From contig PUPH01000117.1 in the NCBI GenBank assembly GCA_003553085.1, positions 1 through 48,382 of the forward strand: a DNA stretch of 48,382 nt, written 5' to 3'. Each line of letters starts with the position of its first letter. Positions within the stretch are counted from its first letter, which is position 1. Position numbers and translations under genes: made by a program. A model generated the notes under the pieces. The model had not been told where the DNA came from. It did not search any database and was given only the letters and a program-made list of their open reading frames with translations. This stretch comes from Thermoplasmata archaeon (lineage in GTDB: Archaea; Thermoplasmatota; Thermoplasmata; Halarchaeoplasmatales; Halarchaeoplasmataceae). This document shows, in pieces, positions 29,295 through 36,084 of the stretch.

Positions 29295-30359
29295 ATGTCG
29301 AACTTCATGAAAGATTTCATAGTTGATACCCTGAAAAAGATGATCGGAATCGATAGTGTCAGTAACGGTGATATGGATGAGATCATCTCGTTCACCAAAG
29401 GGCTGCTAGACGAGATCGGTATCGAAACTAGGGTGATAGATGGTGATGATCACGATCCGGTCCTTATAGGGCGATACGGTGAAGGCGGAGTTTGCTTTTC
29501 CGGGCACCTCGATACCGTTCCTCTAGATGATGGATGGTCTTTCGAACAGGGGGAGATCAAAGACGGTAAGATCTATGGTAGAGGGGCGTTGGATATGAAG
29601 GGACCCTGTGTTTCAGCCATCGCGGCCGCCAGGAAGATGGTTGAAGAGGATATACCGTTCTCCCTGATCTTCAGCACGGACGAAGAAGTATCCATGGCAG
29701 GAGCAGAAGCGGTGAACGAAGTCGATGAGGTGACCGATGCGCCGGCGGTGGTGATCTGCGAACCCACCAACATGCTTGTGGTTACTAGGGAGAAAGGTGT
29801 TTATCAATTTGAGATCTCCACTGCAGGTAAGAACGCACACGCCAGCATGCCCGAACAGGGTGAGAACGCCTTGATGAAGCTTTTACCGATACTCATGGAG
29901 TTAGATGGTAAAAATAACATACTCGCAGGAGAGAAGATATCCTGCTGTGTCAATGTGATCAAGGGAGGATCGGCCACCAACGTTATACCTAAAGCGTGTA
30001 AAGCAGAAGTCGACGTAAGGTTTCCACCTAAATACGATAAAGAATCTCTCATGGACCATCTATTCGGTGATCTAGAGGGTGAATATGAACTAAAGACCAT
30101 ACAGTACCTAGATCCTGTGGAGATCGATGAGAATAAAAGATGTGTGCAAAAGATGATAGAGTTGGCAGGAACCGATACATGGTCGGTACCATACGGTACT
30201 GAGATGGTCATGTTCAGCAGGACTAACGAGAATACGTTCATATTCGGTCCAGGAGAGGTACACCCCGCTCATAAACCCGACGAGTACATAGATCTGGACC
30301 AACTTTTTGAAGTGGTTGATGTCTACGTGGAATACGCAAAGGTCATGCAGGATCAATAG
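29295..30359 (+). CDS. M20 family metallo-hydrolase (ArgE/DapE-like)
   Basis: SGHLDTVP, GRGALDMKG, DEE, CEPT, HAS.P..GENA, AHKPDE. Confidence 0.9.
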   Translation: MSNFMKDFIVDTLKKMIGIDSVSNGDMDEIISFTKGLLDEIGIETRVIDGDDHDPVLIGRYGEGGVCFSGHLDTVPLDDGWSFEQGEIKDGKIYGRGALDMKGPCVSAIAAARKMVEEDIPFSLIFSTDEEVSMAGAEAVNEVDEVTDAPAVVICEPTNMLVVTREKGVYQFEISTAGKNAHASMPEQGENALMKLLPILMELDGKNNILAGEKISCCVNVIKGGSATNVIPKACKAEVDVRFPPKYDKESLMDHLFGDLEGEYELKTIQYLDPVEIDENKRCVQKMIELAGTDTWSVPYGTEMVMFSRTNENTFIFGPGEVHPAHKPDEYIDLDQLFEVVDVYVEYAKVMQDQ

Positions 30360-31945
30360 ACCGCGATATGACCGTCTGCCCTGGGTTCGGTACCGGCACA
30401 GTAGGGTCCTCCATCTTTCAATATTATCTGGCCCCTTCCAAAGTGCCCTGAATGTAGTGCGTATTTTATATCATGTCCTTTCCTTTCTAGATTCAATGCC
30501 GTGTGTTTGGGAAAACCCGATTCGACGAACACTTCTTTCCCCTTCTCCCACCTCCATCTCGGTGCATCCAGAGCTGATTGAGGATTTAGACCGAAGTCCA
30601 CCATGTTACTTATGACCTGAACATGGCCTTGGGGCTGCATATGGCCACCCATCACACCGAAGGGACCTATGGGAGATCCTTTTTTAGTGATAAAACCCGG
30701 TATTATCGTGTGAAAAGGTCTTTTACCCGGCTCCAAAGAATTTGCATGTTCTGGATCCAAGGAAAATGAATTACCCCTGTTGTGCAGGGCTATCCCGGTA
30801 CCGGGGACCACAAGACCCGAGCCGAAGCCCATGTAATTGCTCTGTATGTAGGAGACCATGTTCCCTTTGGCATCCGCCGCTGCAAGATAAACCGTACCGC
30901 CTGTTTCTTCGCCATCGGGACCACCCATAGCTTTCTGGCATATCCTATCCCTTAGGTCATCGGTATAACTATCCTGAAGCAGCTCGTGGTGATCTATCTC
31001 CATATGATTGGGATCGGTGAAGTATCTTTTACCCACCTCGAATGCAAGCTTAACTGCCTCGATCTGTTTATGACAGGCTTCCTCAGACCGTGATACTCCC
31101 AACTCTAAGCCGTTTAGTATCTTAAGGGCTATGGAAGCCACCATGCCCTGGCAATTCGGAGGGAGTTCCCATATATCATATCCTCGGTAATCCACTGCAA
31201 CAGGATCCACCCACTCGGGTCGATAGCTCTCCAGATCATCGGCTCGTAGATATCCTCCGTGCTCTCTCGAGAATCGATCGATCTGTTCAGCCAATTCACC
31301 TCTGTAGAACGCATCTCCGTTGGTCTCTCCGATCAGTTTTAATGTGTCCGCATGGTCTTTTGATCTCCAAACGTTACCGATACCTGGGGGCGAACCATTA
31401 GGTGCGAAGGTGTCGAACCATGGTTTGAACTCGTCACCTTCCAGCCCTTTGAAGTTGCGAAAAGCTCTTCTCCATGATTCACCCACTGTGGGAGATACGG
31501 GATATCCCTCTTTTGCGTATTTGACGGCTGGCTGTAGTACCTCTTCCAAGGATAGTTCTCCGTGTGCTTTTATCAATTCGGACCATCCCGCCACAACTCC
31601 CGGTACGGTAACCGGTAGCCATCCGTACTTCGGCATTTTATCACGACCTTCTAACTCCGCCAAGGATAGTCTGGAAGGAGCATATCCGCTGGAGTTCAAA
31701 CCATGCAGTTTACCATCCTTCCAGAACAGTGCAAATCCATCCCCACCGATACCGCAAGAGGGCGGTTCAACCACGGTCAAACAGGCGGCTGCAGAAACCG
31801 CAGCATCCACTGCGTTCCCTCCCATCTTCAGAATGTCCAGGCCGGCCTGTGAAGCCAGGGGTTGTGAGGTACAGACTAAACCATTGTTTCCATAAACGAC
31901 CTTTCTCATCGACTCGTATGGATATGTTAATGCGTCTGATTTCAT
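30353..31945 (-). CDS. ggt: Cytoplasmic gamma-glutamyltransferase family (Ntn hydrolase, YwrD-like)
   Basis: GGNAVDAA, GIGGD, nucleophile GGTVYL, PGKRPFHTIIP, GVMGGHMQPQG; no signal peptide. Confidence 0.92.
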   Translation of the reverse strand: MKSDALTYPYESMRKVVYGNNGLVCTSQPLASQAGLDILKMGGNAVDAAVSAAACLTVVEPPSCGIGGDGFALFWKDGKLHGLNSSGYAPSRLSLAELEGRDKMPKYGWLPVTVPGVVAGWSELIKAHGELSLEEVLQPAVKYAKEGYPVSPTVGESWRRAFRNFKGLEGDEFKPWFDTFAPNGSPPGIGNVWRSKDHADTLKLIGETNGDAFYRGELAEQIDRFSREHGGYLRADDLESYRPEWVDPVAVDYRGYDIWELPPNCQGMVASIALKILNGLELGVSRSEEACHKQIEAVKLAFEVGKRYFTDPNHMEIDHHELLQDSYTDDLRDRICQKAMGGPDGEETGGTVYLAAADAKGNMVSYIQSNYMGFGSGLVVPGTGIALHNRGNSFSLDPEHANSLEPGKRPFHTIIPGFITKKGSPIGPFGVMGGHMQPQGHVQVISNMVDFGLNPQSALDAPRWRWEKGKEVFVESGFPKHTALNLERKGHDIKYALHSGHFGRGQIILKDGGPYCAGTEPRADGHIAVY

Positions 31946-31985: not shown

Positions 31986-31997
31986 AAAAAAAAGAAA
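31986..31997 (-). terminator. Oligo-U archaeal terminator of the three-gene wHTH operon
   Basis: Minus strand TTTCTTTTTTTT starts 4 nt after the stop codon at 32002. Confidence 0.6.
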
Positions 31998-32001
31998 GGG
32001 T

Positions 32002-32274
32002 TTAGAAGTTGATGAAGTCTCCTATCTCGGGGATATCGGTTTTTTTTGAGATCAGGTCTCTTAAGGATATATCCTGCATGTCCTCACAGAGTTGATCTAT
32101 CATATAGGGTTCCATGCCCGCTTTTTTGAACGTTTTTCTGAATATCTTTCGCCTCTTCTTCTGTCGTCTTTTAAAGCGTAGATAGACGAAAACCAGTTTT
32201 AAGATGAGTGGAAGGGCGGTGGCCAGAGCCGCTACGAATATCAGCGGTGCACGGTCACCTTCTTCCTGAGACAT
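32002..32274 (-). CDS. Small membrane-anchored basic hypothetical protein
   Basis: N-terminal TM helix, RFKRRQKKRRK, FRKTFKKAGME; ATG directly follows the upstream stop (TAAATG). Confidence 0.8.
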   Translation of the reverse strand: MSQEEGDRAPLIFVAALATALPLILKLVFVYLRFKRRQKKRRKIFRKTFKKAGMEPYMIDQLCEDMQDISLRDLISKKTDIPEIGDFINF

Positions 32275-32646
32275 TTACTCCCAATCTCCTTCCATCTTTT
32301 CTTCCATCTTCTTTTTGACCTTTTCGCCTATCTTATCACCGAGATCTTCACCGTAGCTCTCATGGCCAAAAGACGTTGTTCCACTCAAGGCTTCTCTTAC
32401 CAGACTGGTCACGTCCCGGCTCTTCATGAAGTCCTGTGTCAGTTTGAAAGCCTGATCTTTGTCCATTCCAGCTTCAACGAGTTCTTTGTAGAACTTAGCT
32501 GTACTCTGGGCAAGCTTCTCGCTGCTCTCGGCACTATAGACCGCTTCAACGATCCCCGATATCAGGGATGGAACGGTTTCGTTCAAGGTCTTCATCACTT
32601 CTTTCAGTTCCTTTACGTCGTCCATATCGTCCATGTTCATATCCAT
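32275..32646 (-). CDS. Small acidic helical hypothetical protein
   Basis: VPSLISGIVEAVYS...FYKELVEAGMDKDQA; AGGTG SD before ATG 32646. Confidence 0.82.
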   Translation of the reverse strand: MDMNMDDMDDVKELKEVMKTLNETVPSLISGIVEAVYSAESSEKLAQSTAKFYKELVEAGMDKDQAFKLTQDFMKSRDVTSLVREALSGTTSFGHESYGEDLGDKIGEKVKKKMEEKMEGDWE

Positions 32647-32679
32647 TCTATACACCTGTTATACTATAGGGTGTTCAAA

Positions 32680-33138
32680 CTATATCTTAATGCCGAGCAA
32701 TTTTGCCCACTTGTCTAAAGCATGATCCGTTAACGCATAGGCTTTACCGTGATTGTCCTCCATCTGACGGACGACTTTCCTTTTCTCCAACTCGTTCAAT
32801 CTGTTTCTTACAGTATGTCTGGAACCAGAGCCCCTCCTTTCGCGCAATCGTTCTGTGATCTGTGTGATGTTCAATGGTCTTTTAGAGCTCAGGAGTACTT
32901 CCACTATGGATTCCATGATCGGATCATCGATCTCGGGCAGTAGTGAAGGAGAAACCTTACCATAACGCTGATAGAGGGATAGTATCTGGATGTACTTTTT
33001 CTCCACTTCAGAATTGGTAGATACTTTATCAAGAACGTTCCGATGCACGTTCATAAGATTCTCTAACATATGTTCGAGATTGTTCACCTGTTCCCTTAGA
33101 GATCGGATCTCTTCACGAAGCTCATCCTCTTCCGCCAT
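32680..33138 (-). CDS. Coiled-coil plus winged-HTH transcriptional regulator
   Basis: N-terminal heptads (LREEIRSLREQVNNLEHML); LNITQITERLRERRGSGSRHTVRNRLNELEKRKVV. Confidence 0.8.
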   Translation of the reverse strand: MAEEDELREEIRSLREQVNNLEHMLENLMNVHRNVLDKVSTNSEVEKKYIQILSLYQRYGKVSPSLLPEIDDPIMESIVEVLLSSKRPLNITQITERLRERRGSGSRHTVRNRLNELEKRKVVRQMEDNHGKAYALTDHALDKWAKLLGIKI

Positions 33139-33180
33139 TATATATCATATCTAGTGAAAGACCATAAATTTTTTGGGACA

Positions 33181-34257
33181 TTACGAAACCTCTTTTCTGA
33201 TATCGGACACAAAAGAACTCATAGGTCTTACATAGGATTGAACACTAGGTTTTTTCAACTTCAAGGATGAATCGGGTAAATATATGGTACATCGGTGTTC
33301 TCCCATCTCGATGATCTTATTTTCAGACAGATCCCTTTCATAAGTTATCAGATGCCAAATACCTTTGATCTTGTTGTCATCTAATGTATCCATATTTTCA
33401 GTGAAGGACTGTTTCCATCTTTCTCTGAAAGTCCTTTTACAGGATATCGCTATGTGCCAACCATCGGAACATTCGACCATTTTGTCCACTTCGAGACTCG
33501 CTCTGATATGTTCTGGAACTAGTTCTATGTCTGTTATACCAAAATGTTGAAGTATCAACCCGGTAACATCTTCCAATGATCTCCCTCCACGACCCTTGCG
33601 CTTTTGCCCAACACGTCTCTCAAATTCCTGTACAAACGTTGTGATCACATAATCCATATCTTCCTGATTTCCGATGATATCTTTTTTTCTAAGGACTTCA
33701 CGAAGTATGCCCAAACCTTCTACAATTTGTGCACGTTCGACACTTATACATCCTCTCATCCCCAGATCATCCCATATCTCGATTACGTCTTTTAACCCTA
33801 ATTCTCCAAATTTCTCGAGGTATGCTTTGGCTATGGGTTTTGCGATCTCAAAATCATTGCTAGGGATCTCATTCAACATCAAAGATATCGGCACGACTAT
33901 GTGTTTCATAGTCAAACCAAGAATTAAGAGATCATTCCAATCAGTTATCATGGGGTCAAGGTCGATGCATAATCGTTTTGCCTCCTCTCTAGCCTTAGAT
34001 CCTTTCATCCTAGAGTCAATGAGATAATTGAATACTGCTTGTTTTGCCATATCAACATCGACGTTTTTATGTGAACGCAATTCGGAGATGAGTTTTGCAG
34101 ATTGTATCATCACCTTGTTTTTTGAACCTATCCCCCCGTATCGATCCGATTGTATCAACATCCTCGCGAACCAATATGTTTTATCGAATGGGTTTTTTAA
34201 TGTCCTCTCAACTATATCCATATCTTCGTCTTCGATCAGATCATGCACTCTACTCAT
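33181..34257 (-). CDS. Type II restriction endonuclease, EcoRII-C / CCGG-family PD-(D/E)xK
   Basis: RKGRGGRSLE, EVDK, ISCKRTFRERWKQ; start set at ATG 34257, overlapping the MTase stop by 8 bp. Confidence 0.8.
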   Translation of the reverse strand: MSRVHDLIEDEDMDIVERTLKNPFDKTYWFARMLIQSDRYGGIGSKNKVMIQSAKLISELRSHKNVDVDMAKQAVFNYLIDSRMKGSKAREEAKRLCIDLDPMITDWNDLLILGLTMKHIVVPISLMLNEIPSNDFEIAKPIAKAYLEKFGELGLKDVIEIWDDLGMRGCISVERAQIVEGLGILREVLRKKDIIGNQEDMDYVITTFVQEFERRVGQKRKGRGGRSLEDVTGLILQHFGITDIELVPEHIRASLEVDKMVECSDGWHIAISCKRTFRERWKQSFTENMDTLDDNKIKGIWHLITYERDLSENKIIEMGEHRCTIYLPDSSLKLKKPSVQSYVRPMSSFVSDIRKEVS

Positions 34258-35200
34258 CTGGTGGCCTCCAGAAGTCCAGTAGATACTCGAATGTAGTTCC
34301 CATCGTGATATAATTAGATGGCCAACCAAAAATACCTATGTTGTTGACGATGTTTCGCCGGTCCCAGATTATTGTATTCCTCAATTCATACCCTGCTTCC
34401 TCCATAGCTTGAACAATATATATATGGATCGGGATCCTTTTGTTTTTCCACCACATATCCGCAACATTGATCACATTGTGGCCCTTTATCTTCAGCTTGG
34501 GAAGTAATTTACTGTATATCTCTTGCATCTCTGCACTGAAATCCTCGACCGAAAGTGTTCCCAGGTCGTTTTCATCTTGACTGTACTGTTCAACCTTTAG
34601 ATACTGTTCATTTTTTCGATCATCTCCTCTACGGCTTTTATTCTTCCTCTTACGGTTCAACAAGTTCGCATATGGAGGCGATGTCAAAATCAAAGATATC
34701 TGTTCATCATAGAAGTAATCAAAAGCGTTCCTAGCATCGTCAAGGATAGCTACTTGCTTTGTACTCTCTCCAATGTGGTCGGTCAATCTTGTTTGCTGAA
34801 GACGTGATTCACACAACTCAATATAATCCTGATTGATATCAAAGCCGACTGCGTTTCTATTTGTATCTTGAGCGGACACAAGAGTGGTACCGCTACCTAC
34901 GAAAGGATCGACAACCAATTCTCCTCTGTGAGTGAATAATTCTATGAATTTGGTGGACAGTGCTATAGGATAGGTCGCCGGATGTTTCTCTTTATTTCTA
35001 ATATCTCTTTTTTCATAATAAAACTCCCATACCCCTAACTGTGCTTTTATCCATTCCTTAGCCGTCATGCAATTGATATGTGATTTTTTACAGTCGCATA
35101 ATCGTTCATGACCTATCTTCAAGGGCATACCATATTCTTGTTTTTCATCATGATCGAGCTTTGATTTTTTATCTGCATCTATACTTTTTGCATTGTTCAT
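34250..35200 (-). CDS. Amino-type DNA methyltransferase, probably N4-cytosine
   Basis: HPATYP, DPFVGSGTT (motif I) before TSPPY (motif IV). Confidence 0.9.
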   Translation of the reverse strand: MNNAKSIDADKKSKLDHDEKQEYGMPLKIGHERLCDCKKSHINCMTAKEWIKAQLGVWEFYYEKRDIRNKEKHPATYPIALSTKFIELFTHRGELVVDPFVGSGTTLVSAQDTNRNAVGFDINQDYIELCESRLQQTRLTDHIGESTKQVAILDDARNAFDYFYDEQISLILTSPPYANLLNRKRKNKSRRGDDRKNEQYLKVEQYSQDENDLGTLSVEDFSAEMQEIYSKLLPKLKIKGHNVINVADMWWKNKRIPIHIYIVQAMEEAGYELRNTIIWDRRNIVNNIGIFGWPSNYITMGTTFEYLLDFWRPPDE

Positions 35201-35279
35201 GGATCTTCTATTACCCTATCTGTCATTGGATACATATATCTTTTTACCCTAAACGATTAAGTACTATCAGTGCATAATT

Positions 35280-35648
35280 ATGACCGGTATGAAACCGAAA
35301 TTTGATCTAGATGAAATCGGATGCGACTCTGTCTTGGGATGTCTTTATGATCTATCAAAAGTGGATAAAAAAGTCCTCTCATTCCTGCATGAAGGTGGTG
35401 AATACAAAGCAGCTGAGGTAGCAGAACGGATAGACAGAGATCAAAGCACCGCATACCGATCCCTGGAGAGGCTGGTTGAATGTGGGATGGTATACAAAGA
35501 GAAACACAACATAAGGAACGGCGGCTACTACTATCTTTACTCAGCTAGACCGGTAGATCTGATAAAAGAAGAGGCACTTGAGTGCCTCGATAAATGGTAT
35601 GAACGGATGAAAGGGTCTATCCAAGATATCGACGATCTCACAGGTTGA
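35280..35648 (+). CDS. TrmB-like HTH transcriptional regulator with N-terminal Cys pair
   Basis: CDSVLGC; AAEVAERIDRDQSTAYRSLERLVECGMV; GGYYYLY wing. Confidence 0.85.
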   Translation: MTGMKPKFDLDEIGCDSVLGCLYDLSKVDKKVLSFLHEGGEYKAAEVAERIDRDQSTAYRSLERLVECGMVYKEKHNIRNGGYYYLYSARPVDLIKEEALECLDKWYERMKGSIQDIDDLTG

Positions 35649-35964
35649 AGCTGTCTTCTATCTTTTTTGCGAACTGATCCTTGCTCAGTGCTCCCTGTGC
35701 CTGCCCTACGACCTGTCCGTCCTCGAAGAACAGAAAGGCGGGTATCGCCTGGATGCCGTACCTGTTTGCTATCATGTTGTTTTCCTCGATGTTGACCTTA
35801 GCAAAATTTACATCGCCGTATTGTTCAGCAAGATCCTCGAAAGTTGGCTTTACCGCCATGCAGGGACCACACCAAGTGGCCCAAAAGTCGACTAAAACAC
35901 GCTCGTTGTCTTCAACGAAGGATTGGAAATCTTCATCGTTCAGTTCTACGATTTTTTCGCTCAT
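35638..35964 (-). CDS. trxA: Thioredoxin
   Basis: VDFWATWCGPC, GIQAIP; GGAGG SD before ATG 35964. Confidence 0.93.
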   Translation of the reverse strand: MSEKIVELNDEDFQSFVEDNERVLVDFWATWCGPCMAVKPTFEDLAEQYGDVNFAKVNIEENNMIANRYGIQAIPAFLFFEDGQVVGQAQGALSKDQFAKKIEDSFNL

Positions 35965-36084
35965 TTTGCTACCTCCTGATTCTATTTTTCCGCAGATGGG
36001 ATTCGATATATAGACTTTGCCTTGCAATATGCAGATGTTAATCATGGCAAAAGATTAAAAGAGGAGGTGCCTTTGTTCCAATCC

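Follow-up and report, generated by a model that had tools for sequence, protein, structure and literature searches.

To our knowledge, archaea do not use sigma/anti-sigma factors, and few of the routes by which they pass information from the membrane to transcription are understood. Several described systems combine a dedicated regulator with partner proteins. The BlaI/MecI/CopY repressors (Penicillinase_R family) are controlled by a membrane sensor. In the Psp and Lia systems (PspA-PspBC-PspF and LiaI-LiaH), a small N-anchored membrane protein with a cytoplasmic helix (PspB or LiaI) is accompanied by a soluble, helical protein and by a regulator dedicated to the system, and in operons of the extracytoplasmic function (ECF) type the sigma factor is paired with a class I (zf-HC2) anti-sigma factor. 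Moreover, a dyad has been described in which a membrane-tied small alpha-helical domain, HAAS, is always encoded beside a standalone winged-helix regulator of the PadR-like type; the authors propose the dyad as an alternative to two-component systems for membrane-linked signals and describe the HAAS domain as three consecutive helices with a kink in the third at a conserved GxP motif (Ravi et al., mSystems 2024, PMC11237479). Here, we describe a three-gene cassette at positions 31,986 to 33,138 of a 48,382-nt stretch of DNA from a Thermoplasmata archaeon of the Halarchaeoplasmataceae (contig PUPH01000117.1 of assembly GCA_003553085.1; the whole stretch is called the window hereafter). The cassette encodes a winged helix-turn-helix (wHTH) protein, a small soluble protein (SOL) and a small protein with a transmembrane anchor (TM). 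From its sequence, we interpret it as a membrane-proximal module for regulation or stress that has remained unstudied, and we place it among the membrane-linked partners of dedicated transcription factors, as one built from an unnamed protein family. Our favoured interpretation, to which we assign a probability of about 0.42, is that a dedicated transcription factor is co-transcribed with a paralogous pair of small helical proteins in a conserved, unnamed cassette, and that SOL and TM may associate and signal to the factor.

According to the list of open reading frames (ORFs) and a reading of the sequence, the locus consists of three co-directional minus-strand ORFs in the order wHTH, SOL, TM, which probably form an operon. 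The wHTH gene (32680..33138) encodes a protein of 152 amino acids (aa) with a heptad helix at the N-terminus and, at the C-terminus, a winged helix-turn-helix ending in W..LLGI; a conserved helical region lies between them. The SOL gene (32275..32646) specifies an acidic, soluble and all-helical protein of 123 aa. Its ORF opens at a GTG at 32655, and the ATG at 32646 is the likely start, since GGTG is located 6 nt upstream and the resulting length of 123 aa is that of the database copy. The SOL stop codon TAA (32277-32275) abuts the ATG of the TM gene at 32274, thereby forming TAAATG, and GGAG is found 11 nt upstream of the TM start. The TM gene (32002..32274) encodes a protein of 90 aa that is predicted to span the membrane once, with a polybasic juxtamembrane stretch and a domain paralogous to SOL. 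A T-tract, TTTCTTTTTTTT (31986..31997, minus strand), lies 4 nt 3' of the TM stop between ACCC and GGGT and is a candidate archaeal oligo-T terminator by analogy with known oligo-T termination in archaea; a scan for bacterial-type hairpins found no minus-strand terminator at this site.

The two small proteins have opposite properties. SOL has an isoelectric point (pI) of 4.59 and no hydrophobic segment, whereas TM has a pI of 9.72 and a single hydrophobic segment at residues 10-32 (KD19 2.48). The N-terminal tail of TM carries a net charge of -2 and residues 33-46 carry a net charge of +10; by the positive-inside rule, the C-terminal domain should thus be cytoplasmic (N-out/C-in). The upstream regulator has an N-terminus with hydrophobic residues spaced 3-4-3-4 (L7, I11, L14, V18, L21, L25 and L28), and the AlphaFold2 model places residues 2-38 in one long helix (mean predicted local distance difference test (pLDDT) score 79.8, with values above 90 across the winged helix). 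The original prediction, which had been made from the letters of the window alone, proposed a compact unit with TAAATG coupling and its own T-tract, a regulator with a coiled coil, one acidic, soluble small protein and one basic, membrane-anchored one. All of these features were recovered.

The original prediction had also described SOL and TM as paralogous helical hairpins that can be aligned without gaps. The gapless alignment of 22 residues exists and contains seven identities. Pairwise BLASTP of SOL against TM returned just an unrelated 8-residue match (E 4.9) and is therefore blind to the relation, so that profiles had to be compared. Likewise, a word-based homolog search with TM recovered only TM itself, which again called for profiles. 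With alignments of the own family only, the hhalign comparison was suggestive (P 7.7e-4, probability 25%). Among the 918 ORFs of 20 class-level loci, the TM model matched 13 of the 20 SOL ORFs and the SOL model 8 of the 19 TM ORFs, these reciprocal matches being weak (E 3.5e-5 to 5e-3). When class-wide members were included, hhalign aligned SOL and TM with a probability of 95.9% (E 6.1e-9, score 53.1), and alignments A3 and A4 gave 96.6% and E 6.9e-10 over 74 columns. The control scores were far lower: 10.6 for the reversed profile, 13.4 for the best of 30 column shuffles and 10.7-17.4 for six pairs of unrelated families. SOL and TM align collinearly: the anchor helix of TM corresponds to an amphipathic, Pro-containing helix of SOL, after which come FxKxLxxxGM and two further helices. 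Judged by these profile comparisons, SOL and TM are true paralogs across the entire core and not in the motif alone. The predicted paralogy and the significance of the shared module thus hold, but the hairpin was drawn too small, because the shared unit is larger and includes the helix that became the TM anchor.

In Pfam, the wHTH protein of the window obtained only sub-threshold matches to wHTH families, namely HTH_12 (20.9 bits) and Penicillinase_R (20.4 bits; cut-off 22.6). Among 33 members of the wHTH family, Penicillinase_R matched 19 (E<=0.01, best 9.6e-7) and DUF7342 and HTH_12 15 each. Foldseek found the Fur, MarR, ArsR, PadR and AbfR2 (Lrs14-type) repressors at E 3e-4 to 3e-3, and a profile search against solved structures gave weak matches only, to Fur, PagR and coiled coils. 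The protein is encoded by a single-copy gene in the source genome; seven columns are invariant across the 33 members, and there are conserved regions outside the DNA-binding part. The wHTH protein is probably a dimer that binds DNA.

SOL and TM are named by none of the family libraries searched: neither the window proteins nor, with Pfam, 33 SOL and 31 TM members matched any family in Pfam, NCBIfam, PADLOC or PHROGs. This agrees with the statement of the original prediction that no characterised function is known. Literature searches with literal words revealed no paper on the cassette, although such searches cannot prove that none exists. A profile search with SOL against solved structures gave no match (best E 0.16). 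The AlphaFold2 model of SOL is all-helical with five helices (pLDDT 62.6), and with this weak model Foldseek found nothing in the PDB at E<=1e-3, while a wide VIA-align search reached a best Z of 6.2, which is within the noise for helical models. In the ESM Atlas, only unnamed archaeal clusters were found (scores 0.86-0.88), which serve as leads only. The family is nevertheless large, with 469 library representatives (at 50% identity) at E<=1e-3 and 258 at E<=1e-10; the invariant SOL columns are P26, F52, G60, A66, L69 and T70. Two candidate identities were rejected. A UBA-like or EF-Ts N-terminal fold, considered for the AGM module because of its motif, was not supported by the fold searches, in which EF-Ts chains appeared at Z 4.8-4.9 only and on another domain. 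When SOL and TM were compared by hhalign with 30 aligned SHOCT segments, the scores of 7.6 and 9.5 (P 0.49 and 0.19) did not bear out a likeness to SHOCT, and PF09851 (SHOCT) matched other genes in the source genome (contig C80) and in genome G037 but never the SOL or TM genes.

The conservation of the trio in archaea was assessed at several levels; the counts across kin are not independent, and no statistic was computed from them. All three genes are present in 18 of 19 loci of family relatives and in identical order in 17. The exceptions are a locus without wHTH within the flank (L018) and one with wHTH placed after TM (L020). Profile searches of 151 genomes of the class gave TM matches in 77 and wHTH matches in 85: both genes are present in 75 genomes, TM only in two, wHTH only in ten (three of them weak or partial) and neither in 64. 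In 72 of the 75 genomes with both, the matches share contig and strand within 3 kb, and they lie on separate contigs in the remaining three (G026, G093 and G105). Families tend to carry both genes or neither, one having them in 15 of 15 genomes and others showing the TM profile in 0 of 16, 0 of 15 and 0 of 12. Furthermore, a scan of named species genomes seeded with SOL returned 80 loci, of which 79 are archaeal and one comes from a metagenome-assembled genome (MAG) of Planctomycetota. The archaeal loci belong to Thermoplasmata (including Halarchaeoplasma, Saliniplasma and Natronoplasma), Aciduliprofundum, Methanomassiliicoccales and Bathyarchaeia. A scan with hidden Markov models found wHTH, SOL and TM on one strand in 71 of the 80 loci; the others have SOL and TM (six, all at a contig start), wHTH and SOL (two, both at a contig end) or SOL alone (one), and in eight of these nine the locus is cut by a contig end beside the absent gene. 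The co-occurrence of the three genes elsewhere, which the original prediction implied, is therefore seen both in the 71 SOL-seeded loci and in the 75 class genomes. At 84 of 131 junctions between SOL and TM, the TM gene starts between -4 and +15 nt from the stop codon of SOL; these and the junction counts below come from partly redundant loci.

In bacteria, the place of the wHTH gene is taken by an ECF sigma factor gene and an anti-sigma factor gene. A metagenome scan seeded with long SOL relatives gave another 80 loci. The combination of ECF sigma factor, zf-HC2 anti-sigma factor and SOL was found in 51 of them, 19 of which also have TM. A further seven have anti-sigma and SOL, with or without TM, at a contig start, two have sigma and anti-sigma with SOL lost at a contig end, one has SOL and TM at a contig start, and seven have SOL alone, each beginning no more than 161 nt from a contig end; the archaeal form with wHTH, SOL and TM accounts for 12. 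Eight members each, drawn from the same set of metagenome loci, served to build the models of the sigma and anti-sigma factors, and Pfam confirmed Sigma70_r2 and r4_2 (ECF type) in five sigma proteins and zf-HC2 in four anti-sigma proteins. Where a source of the short bacterial SOL is named, it is Candidatus Bipolaricaulota or Acetothermia and once Anaerolineales, and all of these proteins are annotated as "hypothetical". The bacterial sigma, anti-sigma, SOL and TM genes are often linked through 4-nt overlaps: the sigma and anti-sigma genes overlap at 52 of 53 junctions and the anti-sigma and SOL genes at 20 of 53. Such chaining is typical of proteins that are produced at fixed ratios. Thus, with a wHTH protein in archaea and an ECF sigma/anti-sigma pair in bacteria, the cassette accompanies a dedicated transcription factor in both domains. 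These bacterial neighbours, as identified by their sequences, add independent support for the link of SOL to transcription control.

Several variants of SOL were observed alongside these forms. Long bacterial SOL proteins of about 170-470 aa (L126-L165 and L197; P0116, P0139, P0162 and P0171) follow the sigma/anti-sigma pair and combine a highly charged coiled coil rich in ERE with the SOL domain and a Pro-rich tail, and the longest of them also have FxxxLxxxG(M/I/L/V)S hairpin repeats; no TM paralog was detected downstream of those in L126-L165 and L197. A 194-aa form from Thermococci/Palaeococcus has a coiled coil fused to SOL. In five loci (L021, L022, L056, L057 and L061), an extra short SOL paralog is located directly 5' of wHTH, which results in a four-gene cassette. 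The source genome has a second SOL paralog as well (G000:C23:60025-60309; 1474-1749 in locus L002). It encodes 91 aa without the C-terminal tail, is 64% identical over 81 residues (tblastn) and is solitary, without wHTH or TM, an aldo-keto-reductase-like gene following directly. Finally, the Planctomycetota MAG has a lone SOL homolog of 176 aa (L123, 3222-3752) directly 3' of an RnfB-like Fe-S gene; it is the sole bacterial record among the 80 genome loci, and no wHTH, sigma or TM gene is present within its 6 kb contig.

With the HAAS-PadR dyad, the cassette shares the logic of a membrane-linked helical partner and an adjacent wHTH gene. However, the cassette has two paralogs, one of them soluble, and its membrane helix lies N-terminal to the helical domain, whereas the order in HAAS is the opposite, with the membrane helix C-terminal. 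In addition, the conserved Pro is located in the first core helix and has no Gly two residues before it, and there is no third helix with a GxP. The regulator differs as well, with its coiled coil at the N-terminus and its best Pfam score for Penicillinase_R rather than PadR; PadR does not occur in the list of 25 Pfam families for the 33 wHTH members, and PadR structures appear in Foldseek at E ~2e-3. HAAS_TM (PF08006/DUF1700), DUF1129 and DUF1048 matched neither the SOL and TM proteins of the window (E<=0.1) nor the 33 SOL (E<=0.01) or 31 TM members (E<=0.05). A search with PF08006 found nothing in 201 genomes of the phylum, but it found nothing in control genomes either.

Penicillinase_R is the best-matching wHTH family for the cassette regulator. 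However, the BlaI/MecI/CopY repressors combine an N-terminal wHTH with a C-terminal dimerisation domain, whereas the wHTH of the cassette protein is C-terminal, and the cassette lacks a BlaR1-type peptidase. As to the ECF operons, bacterial relatives of SOL and TM lie immediately downstream of such a sigma/zf-HC2 pair, and both the operons and the cassette follow the scheme of a dedicated transcription factor that probably controls itself. The window has no sigma/anti-sigma pair, its place being occupied by the coiled-coil wHTH gene, and hhalign of wHTH against the sigma or anti-sigma alignments revealed no likeness (scores 15-17, P ~0.12). The Psp and Lia systems, with which the original prediction had compared the cassette, likewise possess a small N-anchored membrane protein next to a helical partner that is soluble and a regulator of their own. 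However, no homology to them was found: PspA_IM30, PspB and PspC matched neither SOL and TM of the window nor the 33 SOL and 31 TM members, and the lone Psp-related match is that of SOL to Snf7 (E 0.056, 13.5 bits, under the 27.3 cut-off). The partners in these systems are not paralogous, unlike the soluble and membrane proteins of the cassette, and the resemblance is an analogy only.

What survives all comparisons is that, in every sample, the SOL gene adjoins a gene for a dedicated transcription factor, of whatever type, and this places the cassette in transcription control. A switch could be built from these parts as follows. TM would be anchored by its N-terminal helix, with its helical domain on the cytoplasmic membrane face behind a strongly basic collar. 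SOL would be the same domain free in the cytoplasm, its anchor helix having turned amphipathic and an acidic tail having been added. Through this common domain, the two proteins may associate on the inner side of the membrane; by sequestering or releasing the transcription factor, they may inform it of a membrane-proximal state, in a manner that can be likened to anti-sigma factors, to HAAS-PadR pairs and to PspBC-PspA-PspF. The original prediction had likewise supposed that the two paralogs hetero-oligomerise at the membrane and either control the regulator or form a scaffold, as in an envelope-stress or sequestration switch of the Psp/Lia type. The contacts between the proteins, the DNA target of the factor and the signal are what we infer here. 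This switch, which we favour, fits the pair of a free and an anchored paralog, the chained translation in bacteria and the additional conserved regions of wHTH. However, a number of observations weigh against it. The junction between wHTH and SOL is mostly loose, with 16-60 nt in 49 of 88 cases and more than 60 nt in 23, the SOL start lying between -4 and +15 nt from the wHTH stop in only 16. No TM match was obtained in 42 of the 80 metagenome loci, mostly those with long bacterial SOL forms, and no TM-like ORF follows in the 13 of these 42 loci whose downstream sequence was read; the membrane paralog is thus dispensable for the link between SOL and the factor. Bacterial SOL proteins still resemble the archaeal ones very closely (E 1e-18 to 1e-28 with the archaeal profile) even though the factor is replaced, which fits a partner other than the factor, and the bacterial cassette already has its own anti-sigma factor. 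Moreover, the structure model of SOL is of low confidence, and the aligned upstream regions of the relatives contain no conserved operator or palindrome between the TATA element and the wHTH ATG.

A competing idea, which we hold to be possible while leaning against it, is that SOL and TM are the output and not the input of the system. The factor would then sense alone and induce its own operon, and SOL and TM would be stress-response effectors acting as a complex on the membrane like LiaI-LiaH or PspA. The strong conservation of SOL across a change of factor and the full sigma/anti-sigma switch that the bacterial cassettes already contain fit such effectors better than they fit a switch made of SOL and TM. 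Furthermore, the coupling between the SOL and TM genes is tighter than their coupling to wHTH, and an amphipathic helix in place of the TM anchor would suit a peripheral membrane protein. However, the SOL gene is often translationally chained to the anti-sigma gene (the 20 overlapping junctions of 53), which would be unusual for an abundant effector. The very small size of the proteins and the lack of any recognisable domain for membrane remodelling also speak against effectors, the weak match to Snf7 being the sole one of the PspA/Snf7 type, and the long bacterial SOL forms occur without TM. The same facts can be put together in another way, which we regard as rather doubtful: SOL might be an ancient, factor-independent "third component" of transcription switches that senses the state of the membrane face, with TM as its receptor where present, and passes this state on to the adjacent factor, be it the ECF sigma/anti-sigma pair in Bipolaricaulota or wHTH in archaea. 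If this were true, one signalling module would have moved between the domains of life while its transcription factor was replaced, and the archaeal wHTH protein would be a functional stand-in for the sigma/anti-sigma pair.

Functions outside of signalling are less probable. It is decidedly unlikely that the proteins form a housekeeping scaffold, that is, a membrane-organising complex in cell division, in membrane domains or in chromosome tethering, with the winged helix as a protein or DNA anchor. Such a role would be in accordance with a single-copy, highly conserved locus (the mean column identity of wHTH within the family is 71%), with neighbours that look like housekeeping genes by eye and with the coiled coil of the wHTH protein. 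However, the bacterial counterpart in the same position is an ECF sigma/anti-sigma pair, a transcription device, and a complex whose TM profile is missing from whole families of the class is not essential there. We give hardly any credence to a selfish or defence module, in which SOL and TM would be a toxin-antitoxin-like or holin/antiholin-like pair with a repressor. A small basic membrane protein with a small acidic partner under a repressor-like gene has this appearance, and a type II restriction-modification (R-M) pair lies directly upstream in the window. However, the R-M pair is an insertion (see below), SOL and TM have no PADLOC or PHROG match, and the cassette is single-copy and syntenic across the class, unlike mobile toxin-antitoxin loci.

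Whichever of these readings is preferred, the cassette is small and widespread and is unnamed by the libraries searched, and its companion is a dedicated regulator in archaea and an ECF sigma/anti-sigma pair in bacteria. Should the factor be under the control of SOL and TM, these would represent a new signalling device common to both domains and a natural experiment in the swapping of output factors. If they are effectors, they represent a new pair of membrane-stress proteins. The parts are tiny (90-152 aa) and easily tested, and the existence of soluble and anchored paralogs suggests competition or hetero-oligomerisation as a hypothesis.

Upstream of the cassette, a gap of 42 nt between the wHTH ATG and the stop codon of a restriction-enzyme-like gene contains CCCAAAAAATTTATGG (33162..33177, minus strand), which by sequence reading resembles a transcription factor B recognition element (BRE) with a TATA box and lies 24-39 nt 5' of the wHTH ATG. 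By analogy with known archaeal BRE/TATA promoters, it may serve as the promoter. In the upstream alignment, CCAAAAA(A/C)(C/T)TTATTG is found at an equal distance from the wHTH ATG in relatives L007-L014 and L066.

The cassette is located among housekeeping neighbours and not on a mobile island. Beyond the trio the neighbours vary; by eye, they look like fibrillarin, ribosomal protein S15, a RecJ-type DHH protein and NAD kinase. The type II R-M pair of the window (33181-35200, minus strand) lies directly upstream of wHTH and consists of a methyltransferase gene (34250-35200, minus strand; PADLOC MTase_II, E 1.6e-136) and an EcoRII-C-like endonuclease gene (33181-34329, minus strand; Pfam 27.4 bits), whose ORF overlaps that of the methyltransferase by 80 nt. 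In the relatives read (L007, L008, L012, L013 and L016), a TrmB-like gene is found directly 5' of wHTH in place of the R-M pair, which represents an insertion. The pair sits exactly between two divergent promoters, which are about 60 nt apart in the relatives, and some relatives (L010, L011 and L066) retain a methyltransferase or an endonuclease remnant at this site. The divergent neighbours that are kept in the family relatives are the TrmB-like wHTH gene (Pfam TrmB, E 3.1e-13) and a thioredoxin-like gene; in the window, this neighbourhood comprises 35249-35267 (plus strand), 35280-35648 (plus strand) and 35638-36045 (minus strand). Just 5' of the TrmB-like ATG, CCTAAACGATTAAGTACTA matches a motif that is conserved in the relatives and is probably the promoter of that gene. 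On the other side of the cassette, a gamma-glutamyltranspeptidase gene (30353-31945, minus strand; Pfam E 7.2e-150) starts 41 nt past the T-tract; it adjoins the cassette only in four loci of the same genus (L007, L008, L012 and L013).

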